Shown in pieces: positions 43,431-63,369 of a stretch of DNA of 64,000 nt; within the stretch, counting starts at the first letter, position 1, and each line of letters opens with the position of its first letter. This DNA comes from Candidatus Omnitrophota bacterium (lineage in GTDB: Bacteria > Omnitrophota > Omnitrophia > Omnitrophales > JACQLI01), in assembly GCA_016179745.1 (NCBI GenBank), contig JACPCP010000010.1:3832-67831 (forward strand). Direction: 5' to 3'. The notes under the pieces were generated by a model. It worked only from the letters and a program-made list of their open reading frames with translations, did not search any database and was not told the DNA's origin. The position numbers and the translations under genes were made by a program.

Positions 43431-43938
43431 TTTTCCGCCTCCCCTTCCTCTCATCGGTTCTGCAATCCATGACCGTCCCCCGAATCAATCCCACCGCATG
43501 CGCCAGAAGGGGCCCCAGAATCTTGAAGGCCTCTCGAACCGCTTCCGGGCTTCCCGGAAGATTCACAATAAGACTCCGCTTGCGGACGCCGGCCACTCCC
43601 CGTGAAAGGACCGCTCGGGGGGTTTGTTGCTGCCCCACCTGTCTCAGCGCCTCAGACACGCCGGGGATTTCTTTCTCCAGGATTTCGGAGGTGGCCTCCG
43701 GTGTCACATCCCGGGCAGCGATCCCGGTCCCGCCGGTCGTTAAAACCACTTCGCAGTCGAGGTCATCGACCCAGGAAATCAACACCGCCTGAATCCGGTT
43801 CTTCTCATCGGGAACCACCTGGCGGGCGACGATTTCGGCCGGAATCTTCCTGACCAGTTCCGCCAGTAACTTTCCGCTCAAATCCTCCCTCAAACCTTGC
43901 GAAGAACGGTCGCTCACGGTCACAATCCCGACTCTCAT
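43420..43938 (-). CDS. moaB: Molybdenum cofactor biosynthesis protein MoaB/MogA family
   Basis: MRVGIVTVSDRSS...VVLTTGGTGIAARDVTPEAT matches the MogA/MoaB fold. Confidence 0.75.
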   Translation of the reverse strand: MRVGIVTVSDRSSQGLREDLSGKLLAELVRKIPAEIVARQVVPDEKNRIQAVLISWVDDLDCEVVLTTGGTGIAARDVTPEATSEILEKEIPGVSEALRQVGQQQTPRAVLSRGVAGVRKRSLIVNLPGSPEAVREAFKILGPLLAHAVGLIRGTVMDCRTDERKGRRKNGT

Positions 43939-44462
43939 AGAATCTTTTCTTCTCCTTCTCTCAGGTAGGCGCCGCTCTTTCCGCCCGTTTTCTTGATTAA
44001 ACGAATATTCCCAATCACGATCCCCTTGTCCACGGCCTTGCACATATCGTAAAGCGTAAGACCCGCCACAGCGACAGCGGTCAGGGCCTCCATCTCGACC
44101 CCGGTCTTGGCGGAGGTCTTCACGGTCGATTCGATTTCAACTGTCCGGCCGTCATCGAGAAAAATAAATCGAAGGTCAATCGAATCCAGAGGGAGCGAAT
44201 GACAGAGGGGAATAAGCCCGGCGGTCCGTTTGGCCGCCAAAATTCCCGCTGTTTTGGCCACGGCCACGGCATCACCTTTCACCAGACGATTCTCTTTAAG
44301 CTGCCGAAAGGCCTCGGGTGACATCCGCACCTCACCCCGGGCAATAGCGGTTCTTTCCGTATCTTTTTTTGAACCCACATCAACCATCTTGAGTTCACCT
44401 TTGGAATCCAAATGGCTGAGTGAAACAGGAGACCCGTCCCCTGTTTCTAGTTTTTTCTTCAT
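43935..44462 (-). CDS. moaC: Cyclic pyranopterin monophosphate synthase accessory protein
   Basis: LSHLDSKGELKMVDVGSK...IPLCHSLPL...EMEALTAVAVAGLTLYDMCKA matches the MoaC signature. Confidence 0.85.
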   Translation of the reverse strand: MKKKLETGDGSPVSLSHLDSKGELKMVDVGSKKDTERTAIARGEVRMSPEAFRQLKENRLVKGDAVAVAKTAGILAAKRTAGLIPLCHSLPLDSIDLRFIFLDDGRTVEIESTVKTSAKTGVEMEALTAVAVAGLTLYDMCKAVDKGIVIGNIRLIKKTGGKSGAYLREGEEKIL

Positions 44463-45661
44463 AAAATCAGCGCCTCGACCTCCTCGCCTTTACTCCTCTT
44501 TGAAACATTTTCTCCTAACCGGAGCAAGGCATTAGCGTGGGCCAGCGAACTCAAACAATGCGAACCCTGCATGCCGCTTGAGCGGATTCCGGGGGCTCCG
44601 TGATTCCTTTCACAGACGGCCCGGATAAAATCAACTCTTCCCGGGGCGTGGGTCAGGTCCTGGGCGAGCCGGGCTTTTTCGAAGACCGGCAGCGCTTCAC
44701 GGGCCCCCATCCTCTTCCGGAGGGCGGGACGGACAAAGAGTTGAAAGGAAACAAAACTCGAGGCGGGATTTCCCGGCAGACCGAAGACCAGCGTTTTCCC
44801 TTTTTTCCCGAAAAAGAGCGGTTTGCCGGGTTTCATTCGGACCTTCCAGAAAAGTTCCTTGACGCCTTCTGCTTCAAGAATTTCCTTCACCAGATCATGG
44901 GTCCCGGCCGAAACGCCTCCGGCCACAAGCAGAAGGTCCCGGGCCAGGCCCTTTCTGATTTTTTTCCTGAGGCTGGCCCGGCTGTCTTTTGCGATCCCGA
45001 GACGGACCGGGTTCGCCCCCGCTTCCCTCAAAAGGGCTTCTAAGGTGTCAGAATTCGAATCTCGAATTTTTCCCGGAGAAAGCTTTTTTGAAACCGGCAC
45101 CAGCTCATTGCCGGTCGAAAGAAAGGCAACGCTGGGTCTTGGAAAAACAAGGGGTCGGCTGAAGCCCAGGGCCGCCAAGAGGGCCACTTGCTGGGCATGG
45201 ATAGCCGTTCCTTTCTGGAGCACGGTCTTTCCCTTTCGGACATCTTCGCCCTGATAACGGATATTTTCTCCCGTTGAGACAACCCTCTTGATTTTTATTT
45301 CGTCCCCCACGGACTCGGTCTCCTCCAACATCACCACCGCACCGGCCCCTCTCGGGAGAAGCCCCCCCGTCATGATCCGGGCGCAGGTTCTGGCTGTAAT
45401 TTTCCTTCTCGCCACTTTGCCTGCCGGCAAATCTTCAACCCTTTGAAGCCGGCAGGGAGATTCTTCGGAAGCCTGTGCCGTGTCTTCGCCCCGAAGGGCA
45501 TAGCCGTCCATGGCAGAACTCGTGAAAGGAGGAAGATCGACGGAGGCAATAACGTCTTCTGCGAGAACGAGTCCGAGCGAATCCTTAAGCGAGACCCGCC
45601 TCGGGGGATTCGGCCTCGTAGAATCGAGGATAATCATTTGTGCTTCTTCTACGGAAATCAT
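44459..45661 (-). CDS. moeA: Molybdopterin molybdenumtransferase
   Basis: MISVEEAQ...VSLKDSLGLVLAEDV...PPF..SAMDGYA, GGVS..D, and a C-terminal domain match MoeA. Confidence 0.8.
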   Translation of the reverse strand: MISVEEAQMIILDSTRPNPPRRVSLKDSLGLVLAEDVIASVDLPPFTSSAMDGYALRGEDTAQASEESPCRLQRVEDLPAGKVARRKITARTCARIMTGGLLPRGAGAVVMLEETESVGDEIKIKRVVSTGENIRYQGEDVRKGKTVLQKGTAIHAQQVALLAALGFSRPLVFPRPSVAFLSTGNELVPVSKKLSPGKIRDSNSDTLEALLREAGANPVRLGIAKDSRASLRKKIRKGLARDLLLVAGGVSAGTHDLVKEILEAEGVKELFWKVRMKPGKPLFFGKKGKTLVFGLPGNPASSFVSFQLFVRPALRKRMGAREALPVFEKARLAQDLTHAPGRVDFIRAVCERNHGAPGIRSSGMQGSHCLSSLAHANALLRLGENVSKRSKGEEVEALIL

Positions 45662-45671
45662 TGATTTCCCC

Positions 45672-46181
45672 TCACCCCAACCCCTTCCCTGTCTCGATTG
45701 AAGCAACTGAAGCAACCGGTTCCTCCCGGGTTCCTGCCCCTTCCGTGATTTTAATCCGGTCGCCCACTTGGATTTCCCCGCCCGAGAGGACCCGGGCAAA
45801 AATCCCTTCGGTCGGGAAAATGCAGTTCCCCACCTGATAGTAAATGGCGCAAGGGGTGTGGCAGACCTTTCCGATCTGAGTGATCTCGATCAGGGCCCCC
45901 TCCCCCAGGAAGAGTTTCGTTCCCACCGGAATTTCCAAAAGATCGATTCCATCGGTGGTGATATTCTCCGCAAAATCTCCCGGACCCACCCGGAGGCCCT
46001 GATCCACCATTTTTTGAATGCTCACCAAACTCATCAGACTGACTTGTCTCGTCCAATTGCCGGCGTGGGCGTCCCCCTCGATCCCGAAATTTTCAATAAG
46101 ACGGGCATTCGGAACATTGGTCTTTTTAATCCTTCGATGACGGCTGATTGAAATCGCAAGAATGCGTCCCGCCTCTTCCAC
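45672..46181 (-). CDS. MOSC-domain protein (YiiM-like)
   Basis: 169 aa. GIEGDAHAG...GDFAENITTDGIDL...GEG.LIEITQIGKVCHTPC matches the MOSC beta-barrel with conserved Cys. Confidence 0.6.
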   Translation of the reverse strand: MEEAGRILAISISRHRRIKKTNVPNARLIENFGIEGDAHAGNWTRQVSLMSLVSIQKMVDQGLRVGPGDFAENITTDGIDLLEIPVGTKLFLGEGALIEITQIGKVCHTPCAIYYQVGNCIFPTEGIFARVLSGGEIQVGDRIKITEGAGTREEPVASVASIETGKGLG

Positions 46182-46182
46182 C

Positions 46183-47163
46183 TTACCCTCCCACCTGGCA
46201 CATGTAGGTCACCGGCTCATCTTCTGGCAACCCCTTGAAGGCGTGCCCCTTCGGTTTTCCCTGGACGGCCTCGTGAATTAAATCCATCAGTTCCGGACGG
46301 GAAGCGCCCAGACGCAACGGCGTTCTTAAATCGAGAGTTTCCTCGCCGTGAAGGCAAAGCCTCAAAATTCCGTCCGAGCGAAGCCGGATCCGGTTGCAAT
46401 CGGAACAAAAAGCATTGGTGATGGAATTGATAAAACCAATCCTTCCCCTTCCGCCCCGTAACCGGTAAGTCTCGGCCACATCGCCGGGAAGCCGCTCCTC
46501 TGGAATCAATTCCGCATAGCGGCTCACTTGCTCTTTAATCTTGCTACTGGGGACAAACCGATCCCGCTCGACAAGAAAACAGTTCTTGGTCGGCATAAGC
46601 TCGATAAAGCGAAGCTCGATCGGACACCGCATGGCAAAGGCTGCAAACTTTTCGATCTCATCGTCATTCACCTCTTTGAGGGTCACCACGTTGACCTTCA
46701 CGGGATCCAATCCCGCTCGAAGGGCCGCTTGAATGCCTTCAAGAACTTTCTCGTGACAATCAAGGCCGGTGATCCAACGGAATTTTTCCCCGTCAAACGT
46801 ATCCAGGCTGATATTGATCCTTCCCAGCCCCGCCTGGCGGAGCCGGGCCGCCTGCTCGGCCAGAAAAACACCGTTGGTGGAAAGAGAGAGGTCTTTCACG
46901 CCCTGAAGCCGCCGAATACCGGAAATGAGAACGTCGAGATCCTTACGAAGGAGGGGTTCGCCTCCGGTGATACGGACCTTTTCGATGCCGAGCTCAACGA
47001 AACACTCGACAAGACGGAGGATCTCCTCATAGCTCAAGATTTCTTCCCGCTCAATCAAAGGAAATCCGCCGACCGGGACACAATACCGGCACCTTAAATT
47101 ACAACGGTCGGTCACCGAGACCCGCAAGTAATTAATGGCCCGGCCGTAACGATCTTTGAGCAT
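46183..47163 (-). CDS. moaA: GTP 3',8-cyclase (radical SAM)
   Basis: YLRVSVTDRCNLRCRYCVP, a C-terminal second cluster Cys motif, and the GG motif match MoaA. Confidence 0.9.
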   Translation of the reverse strand: MLKDRYGRAINYLRVSVTDRCNLRCRYCVPVGGFPLIEREEILSYEEILRLVECFVELGIEKVRITGGEPLLRKDLDVLISGIRRLQGVKDLSLSTNGVFLAEQAARLRQAGLGRINISLDTFDGEKFRWITGLDCHEKVLEGIQAALRAGLDPVKVNVVTLKEVNDDEIEKFAAFAMRCPIELRFIELMPTKNCFLVERDRFVPSSKIKEQVSRYAELIPEERLPGDVAETYRLRGGRGRIGFINSITNAFCSDCNRIRLRSDGILRLCLHGEETLDLRTPLRLGASRPELMDLIHEAVQGKPKGHAFKGLPEDEPVTYMCQVGG

Positions 47164-47189
47164 GGGCTTCCTCTTTAATTTTTACGCCA

Positions 47190-47232
47190 AATAAAAAAAG
47201 CCAGCCTCAAATAAATAGAGACTGGCTTTGGC
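47190..47232 (-). terminator. Rho-independent terminator-like hairpin immediately upstream of the moaA RBS
   Basis: On the minus strand: AAGCCAGTCTCTATTTATTTGAGGCTGGCTTTTTTTATTTGG. A GCCAG/CTGGC stem is followed by a U7 tract, about 30 nt before the moaA ATG. Confidence 0.5.
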
Positions 47233-47420
47233 AGCTTCTCCTTTCCAAGTCCAGCCTCGTCTGAGGCGGGTCCCACTCCTGCCCCGCCACGTTTCGTGGC
47301 AGGGCAGGGCAGGACTCGAGGAGGTGCCTTCGTTTCCTAGCGGCACCCGAAACGGCCGGCGCCGCATGTCCTCCCAAAGGGAGAGAATGAGGATTTAGCG
47401 GTCCGGCTCGGAGATTAAGT
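47233..47420 (-). ncRNA. Structured 5' leader of moaA, candidate Moco riboswitch aptamer region
   Basis: GC-rich and hairpin-rich, e.g. CCTGCCCCGCCACG-TTT-CGTGGCAGGGCAGG with a 14-bp stem. A terminator directly abuts the RBS. Moco riboswitches are known upstream of moaA operons. The consensus was not verified. Confidence 0.3.
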
Positions 47421-47541
47421 CAATAAATCTGAAAGAGCAATGTTCTGTCCGGCTTTTTTAACGGCTGACTCTACTCAGTTGCAGAATTGATGTCAGTGAC
47501 AGAGATCACACGCCGGATTTCCTGCCTTCTCAACCTCTAGC

Positions 47542-48720
47542 TCAATACGCAACCTGTATGGCGCTCAGGATTTGATTATCGTCCAAGCTACCCTGACCCT
47601 CCCGCCGGACGTAATTCAGCTGGAGCTTGGCGTGATAACTATCAAGAAAGTAATTGAGTCCAGCGGTCAAATCGTGAGCCCGGTCTTCGGAGGCCCGCTC
47701 ATTCTGGTCGAAGCTGTCGAACTTAAGCACTCCTTGCAATTTGTCTGGGAGTAAGAAATAGCCGCCCTGGGTATACCATCCCCAGAGGGGGGCAGCGGCC
47801 GTCTGTCCGTAGGCGGCTTCTCCCTTCAAGGAGTAGCGGCCGTATTCCCACCTTGCTTCGAATCCCATCCGCCGTTTCTCTGTGAACACAGAGGAATCGT
47901 TTGAATTCCGATAATATTGACTGATCCCCAACTCAACATTCTTGAGGACTTCGTGTTGGGAACTCCCTGAGCGGAATGGACGAAGAACAGCCCGCCAGGC
48001 AAGGTCTTTCTTATCATTCACATCCAGATTGTTTTGTTCTTGACCGTTGAAGACGCCCGCTTGATACATCAACCAGTCCCAGTCTCCGGTCATCATGATG
48101 CCGATATCCCGTTTGTCGCCAAAAGTGCGGGTGATGAAAGAACGTTCAATCGTCTCCAGCTTTGCCGAGGAACGGAGACCCTCCTCGGTGTGTGGAATTT
48201 TAAATTGTCCGATGTCAAACTTGTGCCTGGGAACATATCCCAGTGTGAAGTAAGCATCCTGAAGGGAGCTTCGCCTCGTGGCGTCCTCCCGGAGTTGAGA
48301 AGGATCAAACATAATGGTCCATCTAAGGTCCTTATTGACCTCGCCCGCAAATTTCAATTCTGTCCGTCGAATCCTGGCCGTATCATCCGCATCGTTGGAC
48401 ATGGAATACCAGCCCTGAAAAAGCCCTCCCACGGTGAGCTTCCCGTAGCCAACGCCCACTTTTTTCTCCAACTCTTCCTTGGTCGGGAGATAGACCGTCT
48501 CATTGGGTTTCTTCTCGGCAACAACCGACTGAAGGGCCTGGATTTGAGAAGTTTGTTCTTTGATGACCGTCTGCTGGGAAGCAATCGTTTTCTCGAGGGC
48601 CCCAATCCGCTGCTCGAGCTTGGACATATTCGCAACCTGGTCCGACGGAGTTTCAATCCCGCCGGCAAAGGCCTTCGAAGTTAAAAAAACAAAGAGCATT
48701 GTCAGCATCACTTTTTTCAT
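47542..48720 (-). CDS. Phosphate/anion-selective porin O/P family outer-membrane protein
   Basis: Signal peptide MKKVMLTMLFVFLTSKAFA. N-terminal coiled-coil, then a beta-barrel with many alternating aromatic strands. Matches the OprO/OprP family organisation. Confidence 0.6.
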   Translation of the reverse strand: MKKVMLTMLFVFLTSKAFAGGIETPSDQVANMSKLEQRIGALEKTIASQQTVIKEQTSQIQALQSVVAEKKPNETVYLPTKEELEKKVGVGYGKLTVGGLFQGWYSMSNDADDTARIRRTELKFAGEVNKDLRWTIMFDPSQLREDATRRSSLQDAYFTLGYVPRHKFDIGQFKIPHTEEGLRSSAKLETIERSFITRTFGDKRDIGIMMTGDWDWLMYQAGVFNGQEQNNLDVNDKKDLAWRAVLRPFRSGSSQHEVLKNVELGISQYYRNSNDSSVFTEKRRMGFEARWEYGRYSLKGEAAYGQTAAAPLWGWYTQGGYFLLPDKLQGVLKFDSFDQNERASEDRAHDLTAGLNYFLDSYHAKLQLNYVRREGQGSLDDNQILSAIQVAY

Positions 48721-49361
48721 TGTTGGGTCTCCTCCCTTTGGATAAATCGTTCTAGACTGAGAGCCACCTTTTGGTAAAAGTTTGAAACGGTTTGTTTCGT
48801 AAGATGATTCAGAAAAACAAAAATCCATCGCCCGAGGTGTTCCTTAAAAAAAGCCTCGGCGGCGTCCTCTTTCCCGGCTTGAAGCATTCGCCCCATAAAC
48901 TCGAGTTCGCAGGCCGCATGGTCCGGAAGTTCATGGAAGGCCGTCACCTTCCGAAATCCCTCGGCCTCATAAATCGTCTGCACCTGGACGGCTGATTCTC
49001 CGCCCAAGAAACCCTTCATTCCTTCGGGCAGGGATTCCGACCTGAAATAGCAGGAGTTTGCCGTCGACGTGTCAATGGTCAACCGATCGCAATAGTAAGA
49101 CTCATAAGGGGAGACCGCTTTCTCCCCGGGCGCCACAAAAAGTGAAGTATATTCCACAGCAATGTCGTCGACCCTCGCCGGCCAATCCGGATCTTCCAAG
49201 ATCGTAGTGTTGCCCGGAACCGCATCCCCGCTGAAACAGAAGGCAAGTGTCAGGAGTTTTTGCTCGGTAACCGATCGGAGGAGAGCGCCATCAGGCGCTT
49301 CCCGGAAAAGTCGGGAAAACAAAAAATAAACTGCGGTCTTTTCCTCAAGCTCGGCTGACAC
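48717..49361 (-). CDS. TorD/DmsD-family redox-enzyme maturation chaperone
   Basis: 214 aa helical. AVYFLFSRLFREAP...YTSLFV... matches the Nitrate_red_del/TorD family. Overlaps the Mo-subunit stop. Confidence 0.65.
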   Translation of the reverse strand: MSAELEEKTAVYFLFSRLFREAPDGALLRSVTEQKLLTLAFCFSGDAVPGNTTILEDPDWPARVDDIAVEYTSLFVAPGEKAVSPYESYYCDRLTIDTSTANSCYFRSESLPEGMKGFLGGESAVQVQTIYEAEGFRKVTAFHELPDHAACELEFMGRMLQAGKEDAAEAFFKEHLGRWIFVFLNHLTKQTVSNFYQKVALSLERFIQREETQQ

Positions 49362-51786
49362 GCACGCAGATTTCCTTATTCAGGGACTGGCCGGAGAGCG
49401 GACAGGCGATCGTCTTTGCAAGAAAGCCTGTGTGAGCGCCCCGGCCCTTGGCGATCTTTCCCATGGCCCAGTGTCCCCATCCGTGCTGTGTGCCGACAAC
49501 TTCTGGGTGGATCCCTTCAGTGAGTTCCGCCCGCATCTTGATTTTGCCATAAGGAGACTCGACCCAAACCCAATCCTTATCCTGAATTCCAAACTTTACC
49601 GCTGTCTTGGCGTTGATCCTGAGTCCGTCCGTTGCTTTGAGTTCCGCAAGAAAGGCGTTGTTCTGAGTGCGGGAATGCGTCTGCGATGCCTCTTTCCAGT
49701 TGATCAGGAAAAGGGGATATTCTTGACTTGGCTGCCACTCCCGTGGCTCGTAAACGGGAAGAGGGGCGAGATCATGTCCGGCTGCGTCTTTTTTCCCGAC
49801 ATGCTTCGCTGCGTAAAGTTCAAGCTTGCCAGAAGGCGTAAAAAAGCCATGGATTGCCGTCCCATCGGCTTTTAACATTCCCATCGGCTTGTCCTTGGTG
49901 CCATCCTTCTTCTTTGAAAAGGCAAGGTTTCCTTCGATCAAAGCATCCTTCAGCTTATCTCCCGGGACGGGATCAAGATGTTTGTGATACTTCGTCCCGT
50001 TCGGGCTAACCCACGTAGCGCCGGGGAGCGCCTTGAGCTCTTCCAGGGTGATCTTGGGTTCGCCTTCCTTAAGCTCTCGGCTCAGCCACTCCTCATACCA
50101 CCTCTTTTTGTCCTCAATCCGCTCGCCCGACGTCCGTCCGACCCAGAAAACGTCGTTGCCGTTCGCTTCCTTCAAGCCAAGCCGGCGACCGAGTTCTGAG
50201 ACAAACTCGTATTCCGCCGGCTGACCAAAAAGCGGTTTCACCACCGGTTGGCGAAGTCCCACCGCCGGCCATGTCACCCAGTGGGTATTTAAGTCGTAGC
50301 GTTCTAAATAGGTCGTCCCCGGGACCACGATATCGGCGAACTCAGCAGTTTCGCTTAACATGGTGTCCACGACGACAACGAATTCAAGATTCTTCAGGGC
50401 CTTCTCGGCATTCTTCGTGCCCGCCACCGACATCAAGAGGTTTTGGAAAACGATCATCGCCATCTTCGGCTGGTAGGGGCCCTTGCCGTCAACGAGTCGA
50501 TTGATGATCTCCATGTAAACACCCGATTTGTGGAAGTAGGGCCATTTGTCCTTGCCGCCGTCCAGGCGGGGTTCCTTCAAGGTTTTTGCCGCCACGGCGT
50601 CTGGCTCTACTTCAATGTGCTTACCGCCCTTCGCATTGGGGAGCACGAGGGTTCCCGGCTTCTCGATATTCCCCGTAATCGCAGCAAGCGCCCCAATCGC
50701 CCAACCGGCATACACTCCATTCGTATGATGGGTGCCTGACCAGACGTCGACTAAGGCGGGCTTCGTCGTGGCAAATTCTTTTGCCAGTCGTTCAATTCGC
50801 TCGGCGGGGACGGTGGTAATTACTTCAGCCCATTGAGGCGTTTTATCCTTGACGTATTCCTTAAATTGATCAAACCCCACAGTCCACTCATCAATAAAGG
50901 GTTGGTCCTGAAGATTATCACGAAGAATCACGTGCGCCAGGGCCAGCGCCAGCGCTCCATCCGTGGCCGGCCGAATCGGAACCCACTCATCGGCCCTGGA
51001 GGCCGTGTAAGAAAAGTGAGGATCTACAATCACAAGCTTGGCGCCCCGTTCCCTGCCCCGTGTGATGATCCGTGGCAAATGGGAAAATTTTGTTGCCGAC
51101 AGGGGATTCCAGCCGAAGATCAGCATGTATTTGGAGTTGAGGGCGTCGATCAGGGGGCGCTCATCTCCCATCAGGATCTTGAAGGAGGCCTTCCGCCCCG
51201 TATCACAAAGGTTGGAGTGCATGCTGTAGTTCGGCGTGCCGAAAAGTTTGCAGAAGTCGCCCTGAGGGTGGGTAAACGAGTGGTCCTCAGAGAACCAGAG
51301 AAGTTTGTGCGCCTCGCCGCCGTCCCGCAGTTTCTTGAGACGGTCGACAATTTCCGTGTAAGCCTCTTCCCAAGAGATCGCCTTCCACCGGGGATCCACA
51401 CCAATGCCTTTCTTGGAATTGGTCCGCCGCAAAGGCTGCTTCAGGCGATCAGCATCATAGAGCGCCATGATCCCGGCGTTTCCCTTCGGGCACATGACGG
51501 CCCCCTCTTTCGCTGCATTGGCAAAGAAGTCGTCCGAGATGTTGGAAAATCCAATGGGGTTGTGGGGATTGGGCTTGATCCGAAAGAGGCGCCCGCCCAC
51601 CACCTGGCACAGAATCCCCGTCTGCCCCCCGCACATGTTGCAGCAGGAAGGAATCCATTCGTCCTTATCATAAGGGCCCTTGAGCATCTCCTCTTGGGCC
51701 AAGGCCTGTGCGGTCTTGGTCAGCGTCCCGACACCCAAGAGACCCGCTCCGCTGAGTTTCAAGAATTTACGTCGATTAAGTTTCAT
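49345..51786 (-). CDS. Molybdopterin oxidoreductase catalytic subunit, DMSO-reductase family, Cys-ligand Psr/Phs/Ttr/Arr-like clade
   Basis: Tat signal MKLNRRKFLKLSGAGLLGVGTL. N-terminal FeS-cluster Cys cluster (SCCNMCGG...C). Likely Mo-ligand Cys in HSNLCDTGR. 813 aa with MGD-binding domains. Confidence 0.8.
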   Translation of the reverse strand: MKLNRRKFLKLSGAGLLGVGTLTKTAQALAQEEMLKGPYDKDEWIPSCCNMCGGQTGILCQVVGGRLFRIKPNPHNPIGFSNISDDFFANAAKEGAVMCPKGNAGIMALYDADRLKQPLRRTNSKKGIGVDPRWKAISWEEAYTEIVDRLKKLRDGGEAHKLLWFSEDHSFTHPQGDFCKLFGTPNYSMHSNLCDTGRKASFKILMGDERPLIDALNSKYMLIFGWNPLSATKFSHLPRIITRGRERGAKLVIVDPHFSYTASRADEWVPIRPATDGALALALAHVILRDNLQDQPFIDEWTVGFDQFKEYVKDKTPQWAEVITTVPAERIERLAKEFATTKPALVDVWSGTHHTNGVYAGWAIGALAAITGNIEKPGTLVLPNAKGGKHIEVEPDAVAAKTLKEPRLDGGKDKWPYFHKSGVYMEIINRLVDGKGPYQPKMAMIVFQNLLMSVAGTKNAEKALKNLEFVVVVDTMLSETAEFADIVVPGTTYLERYDLNTHWVTWPAVGLRQPVVKPLFGQPAEYEFVSELGRRLGLKEANGNDVFWVGRTSGERIEDKKRWYEEWLSRELKEGEPKITLEELKALPGATWVSPNGTKYHKHLDPVPGDKLKDALIEGNLAFSKKKDGTKDKPMGMLKADGTAIHGFFTPSGKLELYAAKHVGKKDAAGHDLAPLPVYEPREWQPSQEYPLFLINWKEASQTHSRTQNNAFLAELKATDGLRINAKTAVKFGIQDKDWVWVESPYGKIKMRAELTEGIHPEVVGTQHGWGHWAMGKIAKGRGAHTGFLAKTIACPLSGQSLNKEICVRVSRA

Positions 51787-51795
51787 GATTCGCTC

Positions 51796-52635
51796 TTACA
51801 ACAAGTAGTAGACATTCGGCTCGGTTCCAAGTTCCTCTTTCAAACGAGTCCACTTCCGATGGGTGATCAATTCGTTCAAATTGCATCCATGCCCGATACA
51901 CCGCCCTGTGAGAAAATCGCCGAAGTGAATGGCTTTTCCCATGCAGGTTTCAGCGCATGCTGTCGGACGGGTGTATTGCCCGCTGGCATCCTGGAGATGA
52001 AGGCAAAAGGTGCATTTGCGGGCATTTCCGATCGGGGCTTTCGCCTTTTCACGCAATCCATACTTGCTGTGAAATTCCGGCGAAGGAATATTCCCATATT
52101 CTGTTTCCTGGGCAGGGTAATTTTTCCCCTCATCGAAAATACGAGCTCCATAGGGACAGGCGGGGATACAGTCGCCGGCACCAATACACTTGTCATGATC
52201 GACGAGAACAATTCCGTCTTCCTCCCGTTTGTAGGTTGCACCGACCGGGCAGACATCAATACAGGGCGGTTTCTCACAATGAAAACAAGGCCGGGGGAAC
52301 CAGCGGCGTTGGACATCGGGAAATTCGCCAACCTCTTCTTCAATCACAGGATTGTAAGTAACGCCCGGGGGGGTTTTATTCTCAAGTTTACAGGCGGCGG
52401 TGCAGGCCTCGCAGTTCACACAACGTTTGAGATCAATCGTCATCCCGTAACGAAACTTCTTCTTGGTGGTGAAGTTCTCAGCGGCCTCGACGATCTCGGC
52501 TGGGAGGGCAGCGATCGCTGAGGCGACGACTCCGATACCGGCCAGCTTTAAAAAGGACCGTCGCCCCAACTCCTGGTCCACTGTCTCTTGGAGGGTTAAT
52601 CGTTTCTGGGCCATTTGCGGTTCATCTTCGGTCAC
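51796..52635 (-). CDS. 4Fe-4S ferredoxin-type electron-transfer subunit of the molybdoenzyme (DmsB/PsrB/TtrB-like)
   Basis: Own Tat signal GRRSFLKLAGIGVVASAIAA. Four ferredoxin-like CxxCxxCxxxC(P) motifs. No TM helix. Confidence 0.8.
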   Translation of the reverse strand: MTEDEPQMAQKRLTLQETVDQELGRRSFLKLAGIGVVASAIAALPAEIVEAAENFTTKKKFRYGMTIDLKRCVNCEACTAACKLENKTPPGVTYNPVIEEEVGEFPDVQRRWFPRPCFHCEKPPCIDVCPVGATYKREEDGIVLVDHDKCIGAGDCIPACPYGARIFDEGKNYPAQETEYGNIPSPEFHSKYGLREKAKAPIGNARKCTFCLHLQDASGQYTRPTACAETCMGKAIHFGDFLTGRCIGHGCNLNELITHRKWTRLKEELGTEPNVYYLL

Positions 52636-52694
52636 GGGAAACGCAAATTCAAATTGATTCTTTCCATCTAATTGATTAGAATTCCCTATCTTCC

Positions 52695-53585
52695 ATGGAA
52701 ATCCGGGAACTCAAGATCTTTAGAGACATCGCCCAGGAAAAAAACTTTGTCAAGGCAGCCAAGCTGAACTTCCTCACCCAGCCCTCCATCAGCTCTCACC
52801 TAAAACACCTCGAAGAAGAGCTTGGGGTGCGCCTTTTTGAGCGGGTCCCTCGAAAAGTTAAGCTGACCCACGAAGGCGAGCTCCTGCTGCCCCACGTCGA
52901 GGAAGTGCTCCTGAAATGCGGGAACCTGAAAACCTTGATTTCACGATTAAGCGGCATCCCCAAGGGCGATATCCGGATTGCAACGGTTTACAGCATCGGA
53001 ATGTATGAATTGGCCCCGGCCCTCAAACAATTTATCCGCACGTATCCGGACATTCATGTCCATCTTCAATACCGCCGTTCGGATATCATCTATGATCTGC
53101 TTCTTGAGGATAAAATCGACCTCGGCATGGTGGCTTACCCGGAGGACCGGGTCAAGATCAAAGTCACGCCTTTTGGCAATGACCACCTCGTTTTAATTAC
53201 CCCTCCCCATCATCCCCTTGCCAAACAGAAAAGCATCCGCCTCAAACGGATCGAGGGAGAGAACTTCATCGCCTTCGATTCGGGTATTCCGACACGAGAG
53301 ACGGTGGATCAGACGCTCGAACAGCGGGGAATCAAAGTCCAAGTCCGGATGAGCAATGAGAACATTGATACGTTGAAACGGGCCGTCGAGGTGGGACTGG
53401 GTATCTCGATTGTCCCCAGCAAGACCATCACCGAAGAGGTTCGGAAGGGAACCCTGAAGAGTGTTCATCTCAGTGATGTCAAGCTGAACCGGCCTCTCGG
53501 TATCCTCACCTTAAAAGATCGCATCCCCAGTTATCCCCTTCAGCTTTTTATGGAAGTGCTAACGGACCACGCTTCGAGAACCTAG
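52695..53585 (+). CDS. LysR-family transcriptional regulator
   Basis: N-terminal HTH (IRELKIFRDIAQEKNFVKAAKLNFLTQPSISSHLKHLEEELGVRLFER) and a C-terminal LysR substrate-binding domain. Divergent from the molybdoenzyme operon. Confidence 0.8.
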   Translation: MEIRELKIFRDIAQEKNFVKAAKLNFLTQPSISSHLKHLEEELGVRLFERVPRKVKLTHEGELLLPHVEEVLLKCGNLKTLISRLSGIPKGDIRIATVYSIGMYELAPALKQFIRTYPDIHVHLQYRRSDIIYDLLLEDKIDLGMVAYPEDRVKIKVTPFGNDHLVLITPPHHPLAKQKSIRLKRIEGENFIAFDSGIPTRETVDQTLEQRGIKVQVRMSNENIDTLKRAVEVGLGISIVPSKTITEEVRKGTLKSVHLSDVKLNRPLGILTLKDRIPSYPLQLFMEVLTDHASRT

Positions 53586-54692
53586 GACCGGCTGATAGGC
53601 ACAGCAAGGATCTTCCTCCAGATAATCCCCGGTCAGGGCATAAGCCCGGGAGCGGGAGCCCCCGCAGATTTCACGATAGGGACAAATCCCGCAGCGGCCT
53701 TTTAGGAGTGAGGCGTCTCTCAATTCCTTCAAGAGCGGGGAATTTCGATAAATTTCCTTCAGGGAATTTTCCCGAACATTTCCGGCCGCAAGCGGAAGAA
53801 AGCCGCTCGGCATCACCTCGCCCCGGTAGGAAATAAAAATAAATCCCTTGCCGGCATTGACGCCCTGCGGGGCGTGGCCAATGCTCCCCCGGGGTCCGGC
53901 ATCCCGCTTGAGAGAAGCCGGCAACGACACCTTGTCCCACTCGACCCGGTCCGAACGAATCCCCTGGCGGGCCAATTCCTTCTCAAAACAAAAACGGCGA
54001 TAGTGCGGGGCCTCGGTGATTTTAATGACCGTCTGGACCCGCTGGCTTAGGGCGTAAATTTTTTCAAAGGCCGCTTCGAATCTCTCGGCGCTCATCAGGG
54101 GCAATTCTTTCCCCCGCCCCACCGGCACTAGAAAGAAGACTTCCCAGAAGACGATGTCGAGTTTTTCAATCAAATGAATGAGTTCATCCAGCTGGGCCGT
54201 ATTGTGGACATTGACGAGGGAATTGATCTGGACGGCGAGGCCGCATTCTTTCGCCTGACGGACACACTCCAGGGTGTGATCAAAGACCCCGCTCGTTCTC
54301 CGGAAGGCGTCGTGGTCCTCCGCCTTTGCGGCGTCCAGACTGAAGGCGATTTGATCAAGGCCCGACGCTTTGAGCGCTGAAATCTTTTCGTAGGTCACCG
54401 CCGGTGTCACGGCCGGAATGGCCCCGGTCCGAAGCCCCAGTGATTTTGCCTCACGAATCAAATCGGGAAGGTCTGTGCGCTTCAGGCAGTCACCGCCGCT
54501 GAAAACGATGATCGGCGTCCCCATCTCCCGAACTTCCCTCACCAGACGAAGCGCCTCCTCAGAAGTCAGTTCGTCAGGGGCGGGGTTCGGATCCGCCGAG
54601 GCCCGGCAGTGAACACAGGCCAGGTCACACGCCCGGGTCGTCTCCCAAATGACGAGAAAGGGTCTTTCGGAAAAGTCGAAACCGTGAGTCAT
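53559..54692 (-). CDS. Radical SAM protein with C-terminal SPASM domain (AhbD/NirJ/PqqE-like)
   Basis: WETTRACDLACVHCRA is a CX3CX2C motif. C-terminus GRCGICPYREICGG...CC (SPASM). Downstream of feoA. Confidence 0.6.
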   Translation of the reverse strand: MTHGFDFSERPFLVIWETTRACDLACVHCRASADPNPAPDELTSEEALRLVREVREMGTPIIVFSGGDCLKRTDLPDLIREAKSLGLRTGAIPAVTPAVTYEKISALKASGLDQIAFSLDAAKAEDHDAFRRTSGVFDHTLECVRQAKECGLAVQINSLVNVHNTAQLDELIHLIEKLDIVFWEVFFLVPVGRGKELPLMSAERFEAAFEKIYALSQRVQTVIKITEAPHYRRFCFEKELARQGIRSDRVEWDKVSLPASLKRDAGPRGSIGHAPQGVNAGKGFIFISYRGEVMPSGFLPLAAGNVRENSLKEIYRNSPLLKELRDASLLKGRCGICPYREICGGSRSRAYALTGDYLEEDPCCAYQPVLGSRSVVR

Positions 54693-54736: not shown

Positions 54737-55189
54737 TCACAACTTCACGTAAATAGCAGAGGCGAGCCCCCGATCGACGGAGAACTGGCTCCAGCCGATC
54801 TGGAAAACATAGGAAGGAAACCGCTGAAGCAGGGTGATCGGAGATCCCGGCAGAACTCCGATCGCAATCAGCTTTTTGAGCCGTTGGGGATCCTGCATTT
54901 CCAGATGGGTGACTTCGGCCTTCTGATTCACCGGGAGGGATGAAAGCGGAAGGCAGGTCACTTCTCCCGAAAAGGGGACAGGCCCCTGGGCCATTGGCGA
55001 TCCTGGACCTGTCCCCTTTTCTGTGCGAAAAAGGCCGAACAGTTTTTTCATCCATTCCGGCTGGGGCACTATTTCGTAATAACAGTAAGGGCAGCGCACC
55101 CCCTGACAGCCCTTGACGAATCCGCAGGCCGAACAGGTCTGACGCCCCTGGCTTTCCTCAAACTCCCGTTTACAAAGATCGCAAATCAT
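54737..55189 (-). CDS. feoA: FeoA-domain protein with N-terminal zinc ribbon
   Basis: Internal Met start. MICDLCKREF...CSACGF...CPYC is a 4-Cys ribbon. C-terminal SH3-like FeoA domain (AEVTHLEMQDPQRLKKLIAIGVLPGSPITLL). ATGA start/stop overlap with the feoB stop. Confidence 0.65.
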   Translation of the reverse strand: MICDLCKREFEESQGRQTCSACGFVKGCQGVRCPYCYYEIVPQPEWMKKLFGLFRTEKGTGPGSPMAQGPVPFSGEVTCLPLSSLPVNQKAEVTHLEMQDPQRLKKLIAIGVLPGSPITLLQRFPSYVFQIGWSQFSVDRGLASAIYVKL

Positions 55190-57216
55190 AACACCGCCCC
55201 CAACCGCACCAGGATTTGATTCAGCACAAAGGCAAACCCGAAAGAAAAAAAGAGGATGAAAATGGAAATCCCGACCCCGGTCTTCCATCCCCGCTCCTTG
55301 ACATTCATTAGGAATTGCGCAATGCAGGGCAGGAAAAGGGTCAGAGCCACACAGGCCACCAGCATTTGGACGCCGTCCAACCGGCCCTTCGACACGAGGT
55401 CATAGAGGCCGGCGGCCCCGTAATCCCGCCTGAAAAAGCCCATCAAAAAGATCGAGGCCGCCTCCGCCGGAAGACCGATCGCCCGGACCGGGACCGCCAG
55501 GCCTCGAATCAAAAAACCGAAAAGGCCCGTCAACTGCCCGAGCCAGATCAAGGCGCTCGCCACAATGAACAAGGGGAGAACTTCCGTGAAATACCATTTG
55601 ACCCGGACATAGGTTTTTGTAAGCACATGAGAAATTTTGGGCCAGCGGAGCGGGGGCAATTCCATGTAAAACGAGGGCCGTTCGCCCGGCAGGATCTGCG
55701 CCGTGAGAAATCCGATGAAAAGAAAGACAAGGCCCACGACGAACGCCCAAAGAAGAAGCGCCCGGTCGTGACCCGCCAAAACGGCAAAGATCACCCCGAG
55801 CTGCGCCGAACAGGGGATGGCCAGAGAAAGAAGCAGGGTCGAGATGATCCGCTCTCTCACCGTCGGCAGGGTGCGGGTCACCATCGTGGCCATCGTGTCA
55901 CAGCCGAATCCCAGAACCATCGGTATCACGGCCCGGCCGCTCAGCCCGATTTTCTTAAAGGTCCGGTCGAGGAGCATGGCGAGTCTCGGGAGGTAGCCCG
56001 TATCCTCAATGACGGCGAAGACGGCAAAGTAGAAGGTGACGATGGGGAGAATAAGGGCCACCGCATACCTCACTCCGAGTGTCAGCATTCCATACTCGCC
56101 GACAAAGAGATCCTGAAGGAGCGGCCAGGGAAGGATCCTTGAGAAGACCTTGACGAAGAAAGGGTTCAGGAACCCTTCAAAGACCGTGCCTTCGAGGAAA
56201 TCGACGACGGTCCCCGCCCCGAACACACCCACGAATTGGTAAAGTCCCCCATACAGCACAAAGAAAAGGATCGGAAATCCCGTCAGGGGATTCATTGTAA
56301 GGCGGCTTAAGAATTCCCCCCACCTCCCGGAACGGACATCGGACCTCCAGGACCGTTTTTTGGTTCGGCATACATTTTCCGAAATCCGGGCCGCCCGGCG
56401 TTTGAGGCTTGATGCGATTTCAAATTCAAGCGGGGCCTGAAGATGGTTTTTTAATTCGCTGGCAAGCGCCTCCGCAATCTCCAAAACCAGAGGTTCCTGT
56501 TTCTTAACCAGCGACCGCACCTCCTCGTCCCCTTTGAGGAGAAGCAGTGAGAGAGACCGCTTTGAAATCGGATACTCGCCCGCCAGGGACTCGCCGATCC
56601 TTGCCAGAGCGCCCTCCAGCGAGACCGGCGCCCGGCCGTCATAATTCACCGTCGTTCCACGGAGGGAGGGTGATTCCGCTTCCAATCCGGTTAAGTGACG
56701 GACAGCTGTCTTGAGCTCTTTGAGGCCCTCGCCCGTCGTCAGCACGGTCTCGAGAACTGGGATGCCCAAGTCCTGAGTCAGGGCCTTTTGATGGATTCCG
56801 ATCCTCAGGCGCCGGGCCTCATCCATCATGTTGAGGACCAGGATCGTCGGGAAGGCGGCCTCGATCAATTGAAGCGTCAAGGGAAGCAGCCGTTCCAGAT
56901 TCTTTGCATCCACCAGGTGGATCACCAGAGAGGGCTTTTCCTTAAAAAGGATTCTTCGTGCTACGCCCTCCTCCTCCGTCAGGGGCGAAAAGGAATAAAT
57001 GCCGGGCGTGTCGATCACCTCGAAAGAGACGCCGTCGATTTTCGCCTTTCCCCGGGAAACTTCCACGGTCGTGCCCGGGTAATTGGCCACGGTGACATAA
57101 CGGCCTGTAAAGTGGTTAAAGAGCAGGCTTTTCCCGACATTGGGGCTGCCGACAATCACCACCTTCTTCAATCCCGAGCTGGTTTTATCCTGTTTGTGAT
57201 CGCAGCAAGCTTCCAT
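55186..57216 (-). CDS. feoB: Ferrous iron transporter B
   Basis: N-terminal G-domain (GSPNVGKS, DTPG) plus a polytopic membrane domain with gate motifs. 676 aa. Confidence 0.9.
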   Translation of the reverse strand: MEACCDHKQDKTSSGLKKVVIVGSPNVGKSLLFNHFTGRYVTVANYPGTTVEVSRGKAKIDGVSFEVIDTPGIYSFSPLTEEEGVARRILFKEKPSLVIHLVDAKNLERLLPLTLQLIEAAFPTILVLNMMDEARRLRIGIHQKALTQDLGIPVLETVLTTGEGLKELKTAVRHLTGLEAESPSLRGTTVNYDGRAPVSLEGALARIGESLAGEYPISKRSLSLLLLKGDEEVRSLVKKQEPLVLEIAEALASELKNHLQAPLEFEIASSLKRRAARISENVCRTKKRSWRSDVRSGRWGEFLSRLTMNPLTGFPILFFVLYGGLYQFVGVFGAGTVVDFLEGTVFEGFLNPFFVKVFSRILPWPLLQDLFVGEYGMLTLGVRYAVALILPIVTFYFAVFAVIEDTGYLPRLAMLLDRTFKKIGLSGRAVIPMVLGFGCDTMATMVTRTLPTVRERIISTLLLSLAIPCSAQLGVIFAVLAGHDRALLLWAFVVGLVFLFIGFLTAQILPGERPSFYMELPPLRWPKISHVLTKTYVRVKWYFTEVLPLFIVASALIWLGQLTGLFGFLIRGLAVPVRAIGLPAEAASIFLMGFFRRDYGAAGLYDLVSKGRLDGVQMLVACVALTLFLPCIAQFLMNVKERGWKTGVGISIFILFFSFGFAFVLNQILVRLGAVL

Positions 57217-60249: not shown

Positions 60250-60251
60250 TT

Positions 60252-61091: not shown

Positions 61092-61258
61092 CTCGGCTAT
61101 TTTTGTTTGCTTAATATTACGGCCGGTTGCCGTTTTGCCTCTAGTGACCCGTGTCACAGATCTGACGGCCTGGTGCATTATGCCATTGGGCTAAATGCTT
61201 CGGATGAGATTATCGCAAAGGATAGTAGATTTAATAAATTGATTTTTCTTCTCTAACC

Positions 61259-61275
61259 AATCAGTTTGACTGATT
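61259..61275. promoter_or_regulatory. Palindromic candidate operator in AT-rich intergenic region upstream of the octahaem cytochrome gene
   Basis: AATCAGT-ttg-ACTGATT, a perfect 7-bp inverted repeat. It lies inside an unusually AT-rich 225-bp spacer (61092-61315) that also contains a GATAAT hexamer. Confidence 0.3.
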
Positions 61276-61315
61276 TATCTCGGGTATGAAGAACGTCTTT
61301 CAATCTCGCCACGGC

Positions 61316-62780: not shown

Positions 62781-62810
62781 CCGTCACCTTTTCTATAAAC
62801 TATCGGCATC

Positions 62811-62890: not shown

Positions 62891-62909
62891 GACTGAACTG
62901 GCCTGAACT

Positions 62910-63359: not shown

Positions 63360-63369
63360 AAACTCATGT

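Follow-up and report, generated by a model that had tools for sequence, protein, structure and literature searches.

A predicted soluble, Tat-exported molybdoenzyme with a co-encoded OprO/P-family porin in an Omnitrophota genome, and the uncharacterised clade of its catalytic subunit

The operon, its proteins and their relatives

We analysed a stretch of 64,000 nucleotides (hereafter "the window"; positions 3,832 to 67,831 of contig JACPCP010000010.1, assembly GCA_016179745.1) from a Candidatus Omnitrophota bacterium, which carries on its minus strand a four-gene operon for a molybdoenzyme of the dimethyl sulfoxide (DMSO) reductase family. A preliminary description of this DNA had proposed the gene order iron-sulfur (FeS) subunit B, catalytic subunit A, TorD-like chaperone and OprO/P-type porin, and all four open reading frames (ORFs) are indeed present:

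51796-52635, minus strand: B subunit, 279 amino acids (aa), a four-cluster ferredoxin of the DsrO/NrfC/TtrB/QrcC type, exported by the twin-arginine translocation (Tat) pathway
49345-51786, minus strand: A subunit, 813 aa, a Tat-exported catalytic subunit with a molybdenum/tungsten-bis(pyranopterin guanine dinucleotide) (Mo/W-bisPGD) centre
48717-49361, minus strand: chaperone of the TorD/DmsD/NarJ family (PF02613; Tat proofreading, cofactor insertion)
47542-48720, minus strand: outer-membrane porin of the OprO/P family (PF07396), with a signal peptide and an N-terminal coiled coil followed by a beta-barrel

B and A are separated by 9 nucleotides (nt), the A and chaperone genes overlap by 17 nt, and the stop codon of the chaperone gene overlaps the start codon of the porin gene as ATGA, preceded by the Shine-Dalgarno sequence GGGAGGAG; the porin ORF spans 47542-48828, with the real start at the ATG at 48720. 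Judging from these junctions, the four genes are translationally coupled. A divergent LysR gene followed by B-A-chaperone-porin, with identical junctions, was found in three independent public assemblies and sequencing runs, the agreement of which rules out an assembly artefact at the B-A junction. Scanning the operon for promoter and terminator consensus sequences gave counts no higher than the shuffled expectation. The operon is predicted to encode a soluble, Tat-exported periplasmic heterodimer of A and B, along with a TorD-like maturation chaperone dedicated to it and an OprO/P-family porin that is co-translated.

The A subunit matches PF00384 (Molybdopterin, 125.9 bits), PF01568 (Molydop_binding, 67.7 bits) and PF04879 (Molybdop_Fe4S4, 24.4 bits), all above the gathering scores, and by these domains, which include the N-terminal domain of the FeS cluster FS0, it is a catalytic subunit of the DMSO reductase (Mo/W-bisPGD, MopB) family. 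Tat signals had been expected on both subunits and are found in both, with the motifs NRRKFLKLSG in A and GRRSFLKLAG in B. A scan of species-representative genomes yielded 80 loci with proteins 52-82% identical to A, mostly from groundwater; counts for the clade refer to the 79 usable loci unless another total is given, and L-numbers denote the loci of relatives. The hosts belong to Omnitrophota, Elusimicrobia, Planctomycetota, Latescibacterota, Zixibacteria, Acidobacteriota, Nitrospirota, Methylomirabilota, Chloroflexota, Actinomycetota, Bacteroidota, Ignavibacteria, Verrucomicrobiota, Armatimonadota, Bdellovibrionota and others, and the clade spans more than 25 phyla with an overall identity range of 52-84%. 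When A was used as a query in a protein search, the best 120 of 1499 matches were 57-84% identical and came almost only from metagenomes and metagenome-assembled genomes (MAGs) of many phyla; a 100% match is from a Candidatus Omnitrophica MAG. A second search, with a member from Ignavibacteriaceae as the query, again returned almost only uncultured sources among its best 120 matches, and a tblastn search against plasmids gave nothing above 30% identity.

On a neighbour-joining tree with few references the clade was monophyletic in 100% of 500 bootstraps, and the support for possible sister groups was 8% for ArrA, 15% for PsrA/PhsA and 0% for the Ttr-like enzymes. Phylogenetic placement, proposed earlier as a check on A, shows a separate monophyletic lineage that falls within none of the characterised families compared. 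The clade is a large, uncharacterised, laterally mobile enzyme family, and in the literature we found no paper that characterises it. A published survey reports unnamed Cys-ligand lineages from MAGs with PsrA-like best matches (PMC10100899). A "previously undescribed" enzyme of the DMSO reductase family from Zixibacteria RBG-1, which is encoded near multihaem cytochromes and has a non-conserved Arr/Arx pocket, has been discussed as a possible arsenic enzyme (PMC3903129); compared by description, it may be related to the clade.

The Cys molybdenum-ligand motif HSNLCDTGR, recognised in the preliminary description, withstands alignment: C194 of A (HSNLC194DTGRK) is aligned with the ligand segments SLCTAPRE of PsrA and SSVCAEAH of ArrA, is kept in 78 of the 79 clade members, and lies in the H-S-x-x-C signature of the Cys-ligand Psr/Phs-Arr/Arx-Ttr supergroup. 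Among the NCBIfam models, A scores highest with PhsA (NF012032, 387.4 bits, cut-off 694), followed by ArrA (NF041714, 254.5 bits, cut-off 1600), DmsA/YnfE (250 bits, cut-off 778) and TtrA (NF011567, 108.2 bits over the C-terminal part only, cut-off 1750); every score is below its cut-off, and membership in PhsA, ArrA, TtrA, DmsA, QrcB or another curated family was rejected. The best solved structures are Thermus PsrA (2vpw, 257 bits), Shewanella ArrA (6cz7, 214 bits) and acetylene hydratase (188 bits), and the identity of A to genuine PhsA, PsrA and ArrA is about 30% (28-32%). Of the earlier assignment to a Psr/Phs/Ttr/Arr-like group, the Cys-ligand supergroup and the likeness to PsrA, PhsA and ArrA stand, but A is not TtrA-like by sequence (108 bits against 387 bits for PhsA). 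The label "reductase" is not established, and the enzyme may work in either direction.

The FS0 motif of A is atypical, with C48-C49-x2-C52 ... C99 in place of the canonical C-x2-C-x3-C ... C. C49, C52 and C99 are near-invariant (77, 78 and 79 of 79 members, respectively), the canonical third Cys is replaced by Ser or Thr in 65 of 79 (Thr56 in A of the window), and extra Cys residues occur in this region, namely Cys48 in 70 and Cys60 in 30 of the members. Cys48 or Cys60 may act as a substitute ligand; five members from Chloroflexota and Actinomycetota have three FS0 Cys only, and the cluster could be tandem-Cys-ligated or of the [3Fe-4S] type. The position of the R-G-R-Y segment of ArrA is occupied in A by S166-E167-D168-H169, residues conserved in 73-79 of the 79 members; E167 is invariant and D168, found in 78, stands at the place of the arsenate-binding Arg165 of ArrA.

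Subunit B contains Fer4_11 and other ferredoxin domains of Pfam, and its scores with the NCBIfam models DsrO (156 bits, cut-off 200), NrfC (155 bits, cut-off 378) and TtrB (145 bits, cut-off 416) are all below the cut-offs; members of the clade generally have such a Tat signal on B. The chaperone matches PF02613 with 80.8 bits (E 1.2e-22, cut-off 22.2), in agreement with its TorD-like designation, and weakly the NCBIfam TorD model; an orthologue follows A in 16 related loci. The porin matches PF07396 (Porin_O_P) with 78.4 bits (E 8e-22, cut-off 20.9), as its earlier OprO/P-type assignment implied, and in the PDB only OprP (2o4v, E 1.5e-5) and OprO are related to it in sequence; in a partial, low-scoring alignment the segment F-R-R-A-Y-L-E-F of OprP is matched by I-R-R-T-E-L-K-F. 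The proposed link between porin and enzyme is strengthened by the relatives: at least 37 of 79 loci have a porin-like gene beside the enzyme, 12 of the 14 without an anchor gene (see below) among them, and the three sequence clusters into which these porins fall are homologous to one another (HHalign probability 99.4-99.5% to the family of the window). L004 has a Porin_5 protein instead of an OprO/P-type porin, and the members from Chloroflexota and Actinomycetota have no porin, as their envelopes would predict. As a trait of the clade, the association supports an anionic substrate that crosses the outer membrane.

Loss of the membrane anchor

The absence of a membrane anchor, pointed out in the preliminary description, was borne out by our searches: there is no NrfD/PsrC-type gene in the operon, and tblastn with the NrfD proteins of three relatives gave no match in the whole 64 kb, so that a distal anchor of this type was rejected for the window. 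Without an anchor, the enzyme is expected to be soluble in the periplasm and to depend on a separate redox partner, as had been suggested. The first three distant relatives examined have the gene order B-NrfD-A; among the 79 loci, 64 show this order, 14 have B directly before A (with spacings from a 19-nt overlap to a 163-nt gap), and one is cut by a contig end. As B-NrfD-A is the arrangement of 64 of the 79 loci, the window represents a derived, anchor-less form. The earlier comparison with ttrB...ttrA was also apt: B, with its Tat signal, precedes A, and the order of the relatives is that of ttrBCA, with the C component missing here and present in the 64.

The anchor-less loci (the window, L007, L009, L014, L015, L016, L017, L025, L028, L033, L041, L069, L072 and L077) are polyphyletic: they branch at six or more separate points of the A-subunit tree. 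The closest Omnitrophota relatives, L004, L005, L006 and L008 (about 80% identity), retain NrfD, and their B subunits are near-identical to that of the window around the first cluster (N-terminus), which points to a clean deletion of NrfD in the lineage that comprises the window, L007 and L009. On this distribution, the anchor-less state is a secondary, derived one that arose by recurrent loss, and the usual form of the clade is the predicted quinone-linked B-NrfD-A complex.

A second change accompanies the loss. When 70 B subunits are aligned, the second Cys of group III (C-x2-C-x2-C-x3-C-P) stands out as the only one of the 16 canonical Cys residues that is not conserved. Among the 14 anchor-less loci, 13 have another residue there; among the 59 aligned B-NrfD-A loci, none does. 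The replacing residue is Ala in the window, L014, L017, L028, L041, L072 and L077, Leu in L007 and L009, Thr in L015, Ile in L016, Lys in L025 and Phe in L033; L069 is the only anchor-less locus that retains the Cys. The inspection of Cys spacing recommended in the preliminary description accordingly gives a canonical pattern at 15 of the 16 positions of B and one departure, Ala153 in group III (C150-x2-A153-x2-C156-x3-C160-P). This position, that of DmsB Cys102 and NarH Trp220, sets the anchor-facing cluster FS4 as [4Fe-4S] or [3Fe-4S], and FS4 of the window is predicted to be a [3Fe-4S] cluster. The soluble periplasmic SerB, ClrB, PcrB and DdhB have the [3Fe-4S] form and exchange electrons with haem proteins. 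We infer that the anchor-less enzymes carry a higher-potential [3Fe-4S] exit or entry cluster fitted to a non-quinol partner. As far as we found in the literature, this convergent FeS signature of anchor loss is new. The pairing of NrfD loss with loss of the Cys ligand offers a testable rule, independent of the substrate, for the passage from membrane-bound complex iron-sulfur molybdoenzymes to soluble, cytochrome-coupled ones, and a simple sequence marker that separates both forms in annotation.

The same data bear on the notion that the operon is a decaying remnant whose complex was inactivated through loss of the anchor. The NrfD of close relatives is indeed missing here, but the four ORFs are intact and translationally coupled, the catalytic and cofactor residues are retained, the arrangement recurs in the three independent assemblies, and the same architecture exists in 14 loci of at least six lineages together with the convergent FeS change. 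We consider decay very improbable indeed.

Candidate redox partners and neighbouring genes

The following features of the window lie around the operon:

58159-63990, minus strand: candidate redox-partner module, 5.5-11 kb upstream of B on the same strand
57222-58073: MetA-like outer-membrane protein gene, following the cytochrome module
54737-57216: feoAB, following the MetA-like gene
52695-53585, plus strand: LysR-family regulator (Pfam HTH_1, LysR_substrate), divergent from B
47266-47425, minus strand: candidate molybdenum or tungsten cofactor (Moco/Tuco) riboswitch aptamer (RF01055)
41567-47163, minus strand: biosynthesis cluster for Moco in the bis(molybdopterin guanine dinucleotide) (bis-MGD) form, with MoaA, a MOSC protein, MoeA, MoaC, MoaB/Mog, a TauE/SafE permease, MobB and MobA

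A check for distal NrfD/PsrC-type or cytochrome partners, proposed at the outset, has a divided outcome: NrfD is absent from the 64 kb, but multihaem cytochromes and a cytochrome b are encoded 5.5-11 kb upstream. By CXXCH counts and Pfam matches the module comprises a cytochrome b (b6 and subunit IV fused, running off the window end) and cytochromes with four (c554-like), five and seven haems. The 4-haem cytochrome is encoded at 62910-63359 and the 7-haem one at 60252-61178. The 7-haem protein is MtrA/DmsE-like and scores 166 bits with the DmsE family TIGR03508 (cut-off 192.2); its gene is overlapped by that of a 714-aa outer-membrane protein that has a signal peptide and is matched by no model of Pfam or NCBIfam. 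The pair is a putative porin-cytochrome conduit of the MtrAB/DmsEF/PioAB kind. The closest anchor-less relative, L007, has orthologues of the 7-haem cytochrome (66% identity) and of the outer-membrane protein (44%) 1.3 kb downstream of B-A-chaperone, followed by a bona fide NapA, and within 10 kb L009 encodes the 5-haem orthologue, a protein with 11 haems and a fragment of cytochrome b. Within 10-kb flanks, multihaem genes thus accompany three of three anchor-less and none of four anchored Omnitrophota loci; this pattern probably goes back to a single evolutionary event and is no more than suggestive. In most of the remaining anchor-less loci the available flanks contain no cytochromes.

In the mechanism that we propose, the porin would admit an anionic substrate to the periplasm, where A would convert it at the molybdenum centre, with electrons travelling via FS0 and the four clusters of B. 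Because NrfD is gone and the FS4 Cys ligand is lost (A153), B is likely to be coupled to cytochrome c, and its electron-exchange partners would probably be c-type cytochromes of the periplasm rather than quinol. The best candidates for the partner would be the cytochrome-b-linked multihaem proteins and the MtrA/DmsE-like heptahaem protein; the anchor-less ArrAB of Shewanella uses CymA in a similar way.

A variant of this scheme places the AB dimer at or beyond the outer membrane, wired by the heptahaem cytochrome and the 714-aa barrel in the manner of DmsEFAB of Shewanella. The parts list corresponds to dmsEFABGH (anchor-less A and B, a TorD-type chaperone, a DmsE-like cytochrome and an outer-membrane protein of about 700 aa), the two extra genes lie close to B-A-chaperone in L007, and among the Omnitrophota loci multihaem genes are found solely with the anchor-less ones. 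However, a co-translated substrate porin makes most sense with a periplasmic enzyme, a cytochrome/barrel pair is missing from the available flanks of most other anchor-less loci, the 7-haem cytochrome does not reach the cut-off of the DmsE family and the 714-aa protein has no family match, six genes separate the pair from the operon in the window, and no type II secretion genes were seen. An extracellular location is, in our view, quite improbable, and we prefer the periplasmic, cytochrome-coupled dimer.

The LysR protein is probably the regulator of the operon in this lineage. An orthologue (72% identity) occupies the same divergent position in L004, a LysR gene is present in all three independent assemblies, and the 59-nt LysR-B intergenic region (52636-52694) contains a perfect 6-2-6 palindrome, TCTAAT-CA-ATTAGA, at about 52664-52677, which is a plausible candidate LysR box. 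Upstream of LysR we found a radical SAM/SPASM protein (53559-54692, minus strand; TIGR04053, 456 bits, cut-off 395) related to haem b synthase AhbD, and homologues of it are encoded near the enzyme in L013, L043 and L051.

The Moco genes, among them moaA (TIGR02666, 362.7 bits, above the cut-off), had been described as a bis-MGD cluster directly adjoining the operon. They are adjacent but form a separate unit beyond a 378-nt spacer between porin and moaA. A scan of the window with Rfam at the gathering threshold gave no match; in a sensitive search, RF01055 matched the spacer over its full length (1-135) with 26.4 bits (gathering 36, E 3.9e-4), and the candidate aptamer is followed by a terminator-like stem-loop (about 47195-47228) and a U-run. 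Because of this spacer with its riboswitch match, stem-loop and U-run, the Moco genes are probably an independent, cofactor-regulated unit. Of the 79 loci, 28 have Moco genes and eight have TauE at a distance of up to 8 kb from the enzyme. The TauE/SafE permease of the window (42666-43454, minus strand) is embedded among the Moco genes, as it is in L006, L010 and L041; in L002 a homologue with 52% identity directly follows A (11503-12267). It may be an oxyanion permease, e.g. for molybdate or tungstate, rather than a sulfite exporter.

Further from the operon, the window encodes a copper nitrite reductase NirK (38615-39622, minus strand; TIGR02376, 319.8 bits, cut-off 296.3) near NnrS (36608-38119, minus strand), and an EAL-domain protein (35895-36611) lies just downstream of NnrS. 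This NirK is bona fide, and the organism is probably able to reduce nitrite. Among the relatives, three Omnitrophota loci (L019, L021 and L022) have an anion permease of the CitMHS/ArsB superfamily downstream of A, and in L072 (Bdellovibrionota) a PstS-like binding protein and a methyl-accepting chemotaxis protein (5672-8150) come after the anchor-less operon.

The substrate and comparison with known systems

Of the five substrates listed in the preliminary description (tetrathionate, thiosulfate, polysulfide, arsenate and selenate), arsenate is the one favoured by gene context, albeit that of the relatives, the window itself being free of arsenic genes and offering, apart from its porin, no direct hint of the substrate. 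Upstream of B, 16 loci (L002, L010 and L014 among them) encode a binding protein of the PhnD superfamily whose gene adjoins those of a histidine kinase and a response regulator; the response regulators are of the sigma-54/AtoC type in some of these loci and of the NarL/FixJ type in others. A profile of 14 of the binding proteins matched ArrX from Chrysiogenes arsenatis (6x6b) with 293 bits (E 2e-86), followed by AioX (211 bits), PtxB (125), PhnD (95) and HtxB (87). In these sensor proteins the pocket residues Tyr, Tyr, His and Asp are invariant, and so is a Cys that PhnD lacks and that marks the arsenic-sensing subfamily (PMC5908839). According to the same study ArrX binds arsenate and AioX arsenite, each sensor binding the substrate of its cognate molybdoenzyme, and in isothermal titration calorimetry (ITC) neither bound thiosulfate, tetrathionate, selenate, antimonite or phosphonate.

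Genes for ArsR, ArsP, ACR3 and ArsC of the LMW-PTP type (protein tyrosine phosphatase of low molecular weight) lie within 10 kb of the enzyme in 14 loci, for which a rough, not computed estimate for a random 20-kb window is about 1%. In L018, L034, L047 and L067, a second, Ttr-like cluster of the order B-NrfD-A (B-C-A) is situated directly beside that of the clade. The A subunits of these neighbours (about 1050-1120 aa, 445-480 bits with the TtrA model, Gly-Arg motif present) belong to a clade that includes members from Melioribacteraceae and Verrucomicrobia, and are consistent with the published Ttr-like arsenate reductases (PMC5492636, PMC13608581, PMC12949373), of which they are candidates. 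At least one arsenic marker (sensor, ars gene or Ttr-like neighbour) is present in 28 of 81 loci.

Because orthologous operons carry ArrX/AioX-type three-component systems and adjoin ars genes, an arsenic oxyanion would be the most likely substrate, with arsenate being reduced or arsenite oxidised; in this genome LysR would have replaced the ArrX/AioX-type sensor. Taken together, we tentatively read the operon, at somewhat less than an even chance, as encoding an anchor-less, cytochrome-coupled AB dimer that acts on a porin-admitted anion, most likely an arsenic oxyanion, in one direction or the other.

Several observations weigh against this reading. The window has no ars gene, ArrX-like sensor or Ttr-like neighbour, so that the arsenic link rests on orthology at 57-68% identity. 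The Gly-Arg motif, reported in all arsenic-converting Arr, Arx and Ttr-like enzymes (PMC12949373), is absent from the clade in both of its forms, (R/K)GRY and XGRGWG, and is replaced by S-E-D-H. The nearest curated model is PhsA, and public pipelines name the clade thiosulfate/polysulfide reductase. On the side of electron transfer, the [3Fe-4S] nature of FS4 is predicted from sequence alone; feoAB, the radical-SAM gene and the LysR gene lie between the cytochrome cluster and the operon; the cluster may instead serve iron or nitrate/nitrite metabolism (the cytochrome/outer-membrane-protein pair of L007 lies between operon and napA); and a partner such as NrfD, CymA or NapC is possibly encoded elsewhere in the genome.

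The PhsA match is also the starting point for viewing the enzyme as a sulfur-compound reductase, for which the porin would import polysulfide, thiosulfate or tetrathionate and periplasmic cytochromes would give the electrons. PhsA is the best curated model (387 bits) and Thermus PsrA the best structure (257 bits), the Joint Genome Institute (JGI) labels clade members "thiosulfate reductase/polysulfide reductase chain A", the order B-C-A is that of ttrBCA, a TauE/SafE permease ("sulfite exporter" family) is close by, and in Dissulfuribacter thermophilus an OprO/P-like porin is syntenic with a ttrBCA homologue, both being up in the proteomes under H2/sulfite (PMC13490349). Yet A is no more than 28-32% identical to PhsA and PsrA and falls far short of the PhsA cut-off of 694, no rhodanese, Sud, Dsr or Sox gene is among the recurrent neighbour families, and TauE goes with the Moco genes, not with the enzyme. 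Many hosts (e.g. Nitrospira, Tepidiforma, Gemmataceae, Fimbriimonadales) are outside the lineages known for sulfur respiration, and the sensors of the relatives belong to the arsenic-binding ArrX/AioX subfamily; ArrX and AioX did not bind thiosulfate or tetrathionate (PMC5908839). We regard a sulfur substrate as unlikely.

Another metalloid or chalcogen oxyanion in an arsenic-type context (antimonate/antimonite, selenite/selenate, tellurite or phosphite) has to be weighed as well. Ars systems (ArsR, ACR3) also handle Sb(III), the sensors fall within the PhnD/PtxB superfamily, and the invariant acidic S-E-D-H pocket, unlike every known arsenate site, would suit a neutral hydroxo compound, be it Sb(OH)3 or As(OH)3. 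Weakly, the porin matches ExtI and the cytochrome b ExtP/ExtQ, known from a selenite/tellurite operon, and LysR the "selenium-metabolism LysR" model; these selenium hints were set aside and not relied on, as all scores are far below the cut-offs (31.9 against 150, 48 against 290 and 193 against 250). The sensor profile prefers ArrX (293 bits) and AioX (211 bits) to PtxB (125 bits) and HtxB (87 bits), and AioX and ArrX bound no antimonite, selenate or phosphonate in ITC (PMC5908839). The antimony enzymes found in the literature (NaoABC) differ in architecture and clade, and identity with the antimonite oxidase NaoABC, which has an A-B-Rieske architecture and is NapA-like, was ruled out. Such a substrate likewise seems unlikely to us, and the arsenic reading remains the preferred one.

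If the clade does act on arsenic, its binding mode must differ from that of the known enzymes; as far as the pocket residues indicate, an acidic, hydrogen-bond-accepting site would suit neutral As(OH)3 better than arsenate. Most of the host phyla use menaquinone. On thermodynamic reasoning, this would favour arsenate reduction in the anchored form; the [3Fe-4S], cytochrome-coupled form could work either way. A bolder extension, which we hold to be rather unlikely, sees in the clade, which occurs in more than 25 phyla and almost exclusively in metagenomes from groundwater and soil, a previously unrecognised and very widespread family of respiratory molybdoenzymes that transform arsenic, with an S-E-D-H pocket, an atypical FS0 and an anchor-less form that results from a repeated switch from quinone to cytochrome c. 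In that case the clade would be mislabelled as thiosulfate/polysulfide reductase and its active-site chemistry would be unlike that of Arr, Arx, Aio and the Ttr-like reductases, and the switch in Omnitrophota could couple arsenite oxidation to nitrate/nitrite reduction (cf. NirK in the window and NapA in L007) or to an MtrAB-like conduit in the outer membrane.

The genes arrA, aioA and arxA explain arsenic mobilisation in aquifers and paddy soils only in part. Non-Arr enzymes dominate the transcripts in some soils (PMC11462812). Groundwater metagenomes contain the present clade in abundance; it is highly conserved from phylum to phylum, and in many genomes it is linked to arsenic sensors. Should it be active on arsenic, annotation as phsA/psrA would over-call sulfur cycling and under-call arsenic cycling in many metagenome studies.

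Among known systems, PsrABC (Thermus thermophilus, 2vpw) and PhsABC (Salmonella/E. coli) share with the enzyme of the window the Cys molybdenum ligand at the same motif position, Tat export and a four-cluster B, and with the clade at large an NrfD-type anchor; they also provide the best sequence matches to A. Their gene order is A-B-C, in contrast to B-A in the window and B-(C)-A in the clade, and they differ from the window in that B has its own Tat signal here, the anchor is absent and FS0 is atypical. Compared with PsrA/PhsA, A has an insertion of about 60-100 aa around residues 545-660, and G-H-G-T of PsrA is replaced by S-E-D-H.

ArrAB of Shewanella sp. ANA-3 (6cz7) is a soluble periplasmic A-B dimer without an anchor that is fed by the tetrahaem quinol dehydrogenase CymA. 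Other Arr operons have an NrfD-type ArrC, which is the same dichotomy of anchored and anchor-less forms as in the clade, but the order is A-B instead of B-A, (R/K)GRY stands in place of S-E-D-H, and A reaches 254 bits with the ArrA model against 1600. Sensors like those of the ArrXSR and AioXSR systems are present in relatives of the operon, whereas the window has LysR and no X-S-R system. TtrBCA and the Ttr-like arsenate reductases (Pyrobaculum, Anaeromyxobacter PSR-1, Melioribacter MROS_1074-1076) have in common with the clade the order B-C-A and a Tat signal on B. However, TtrA-type subunits have about 1020-1120 aa in comparison with the 813 aa of A, the clade has no Gly-Arg motif, and its grouping with Ttr-like enzymes received 0% support. 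Identity with the published Ttr-like arsenate reductases was ruled out by size, TtrA score, the lack of the Gly-Arg motif and the tree, with the sequences from PSR-1, OR-1 and MROS lying outside the comparison.

The likeness to DmsEFABGH of Shewanella consists in an anchor-less A-B pair, TorD-type chaperones and a DmsE/MtrA cytochrome with a barrel of about 700 aa, a gene set that is found in the window and is linked in L007. The differences are the Ser-ligated DmsA and 10-haem DmsE, as opposed to a Cys-ligated, Psr/Arr-like A and a 7-haem cytochrome below the cut-off, and the OprP-type substrate porin of the window. SerABC, ClrABC, PcrAB, DdhABC, EbdABC and NarH resemble the anchor-less members of the clade in the replacement of the second group III Cys of B, which gives them a [3Fe-4S] FS4, and the soluble ones among them hand electrons to haem proteins instead of quinol, but their catalytic subunits form an Asp-ligand clade and their B subunits another lineage; unlike in these type II enzymes, the replacement arose repeatedly in the clade of the window and only where NrfD was lost. 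The MOLY cluster (MolyAB and a TorD-like protein) of sulfur-disproportionating Desulfobacterota (PMC9676032) also combines a two-subunit molybdoenzyme with a chaperone and no anchor, but MolyB has 191 aa and is predicted to be cytosolic in the one strain described (F29), in contrast to the Tat-exported 279-aa B of the window. Finally, the cluster of D. thermophilus (PMC13490349) shares with the clade an OprO/P-like porin and a B-C-A molybdoenzyme, which in that case is described as a TtrBCA homologue of true size; by their published descriptions, both the MOLY and the D. thermophilus clusters differ from the clade.

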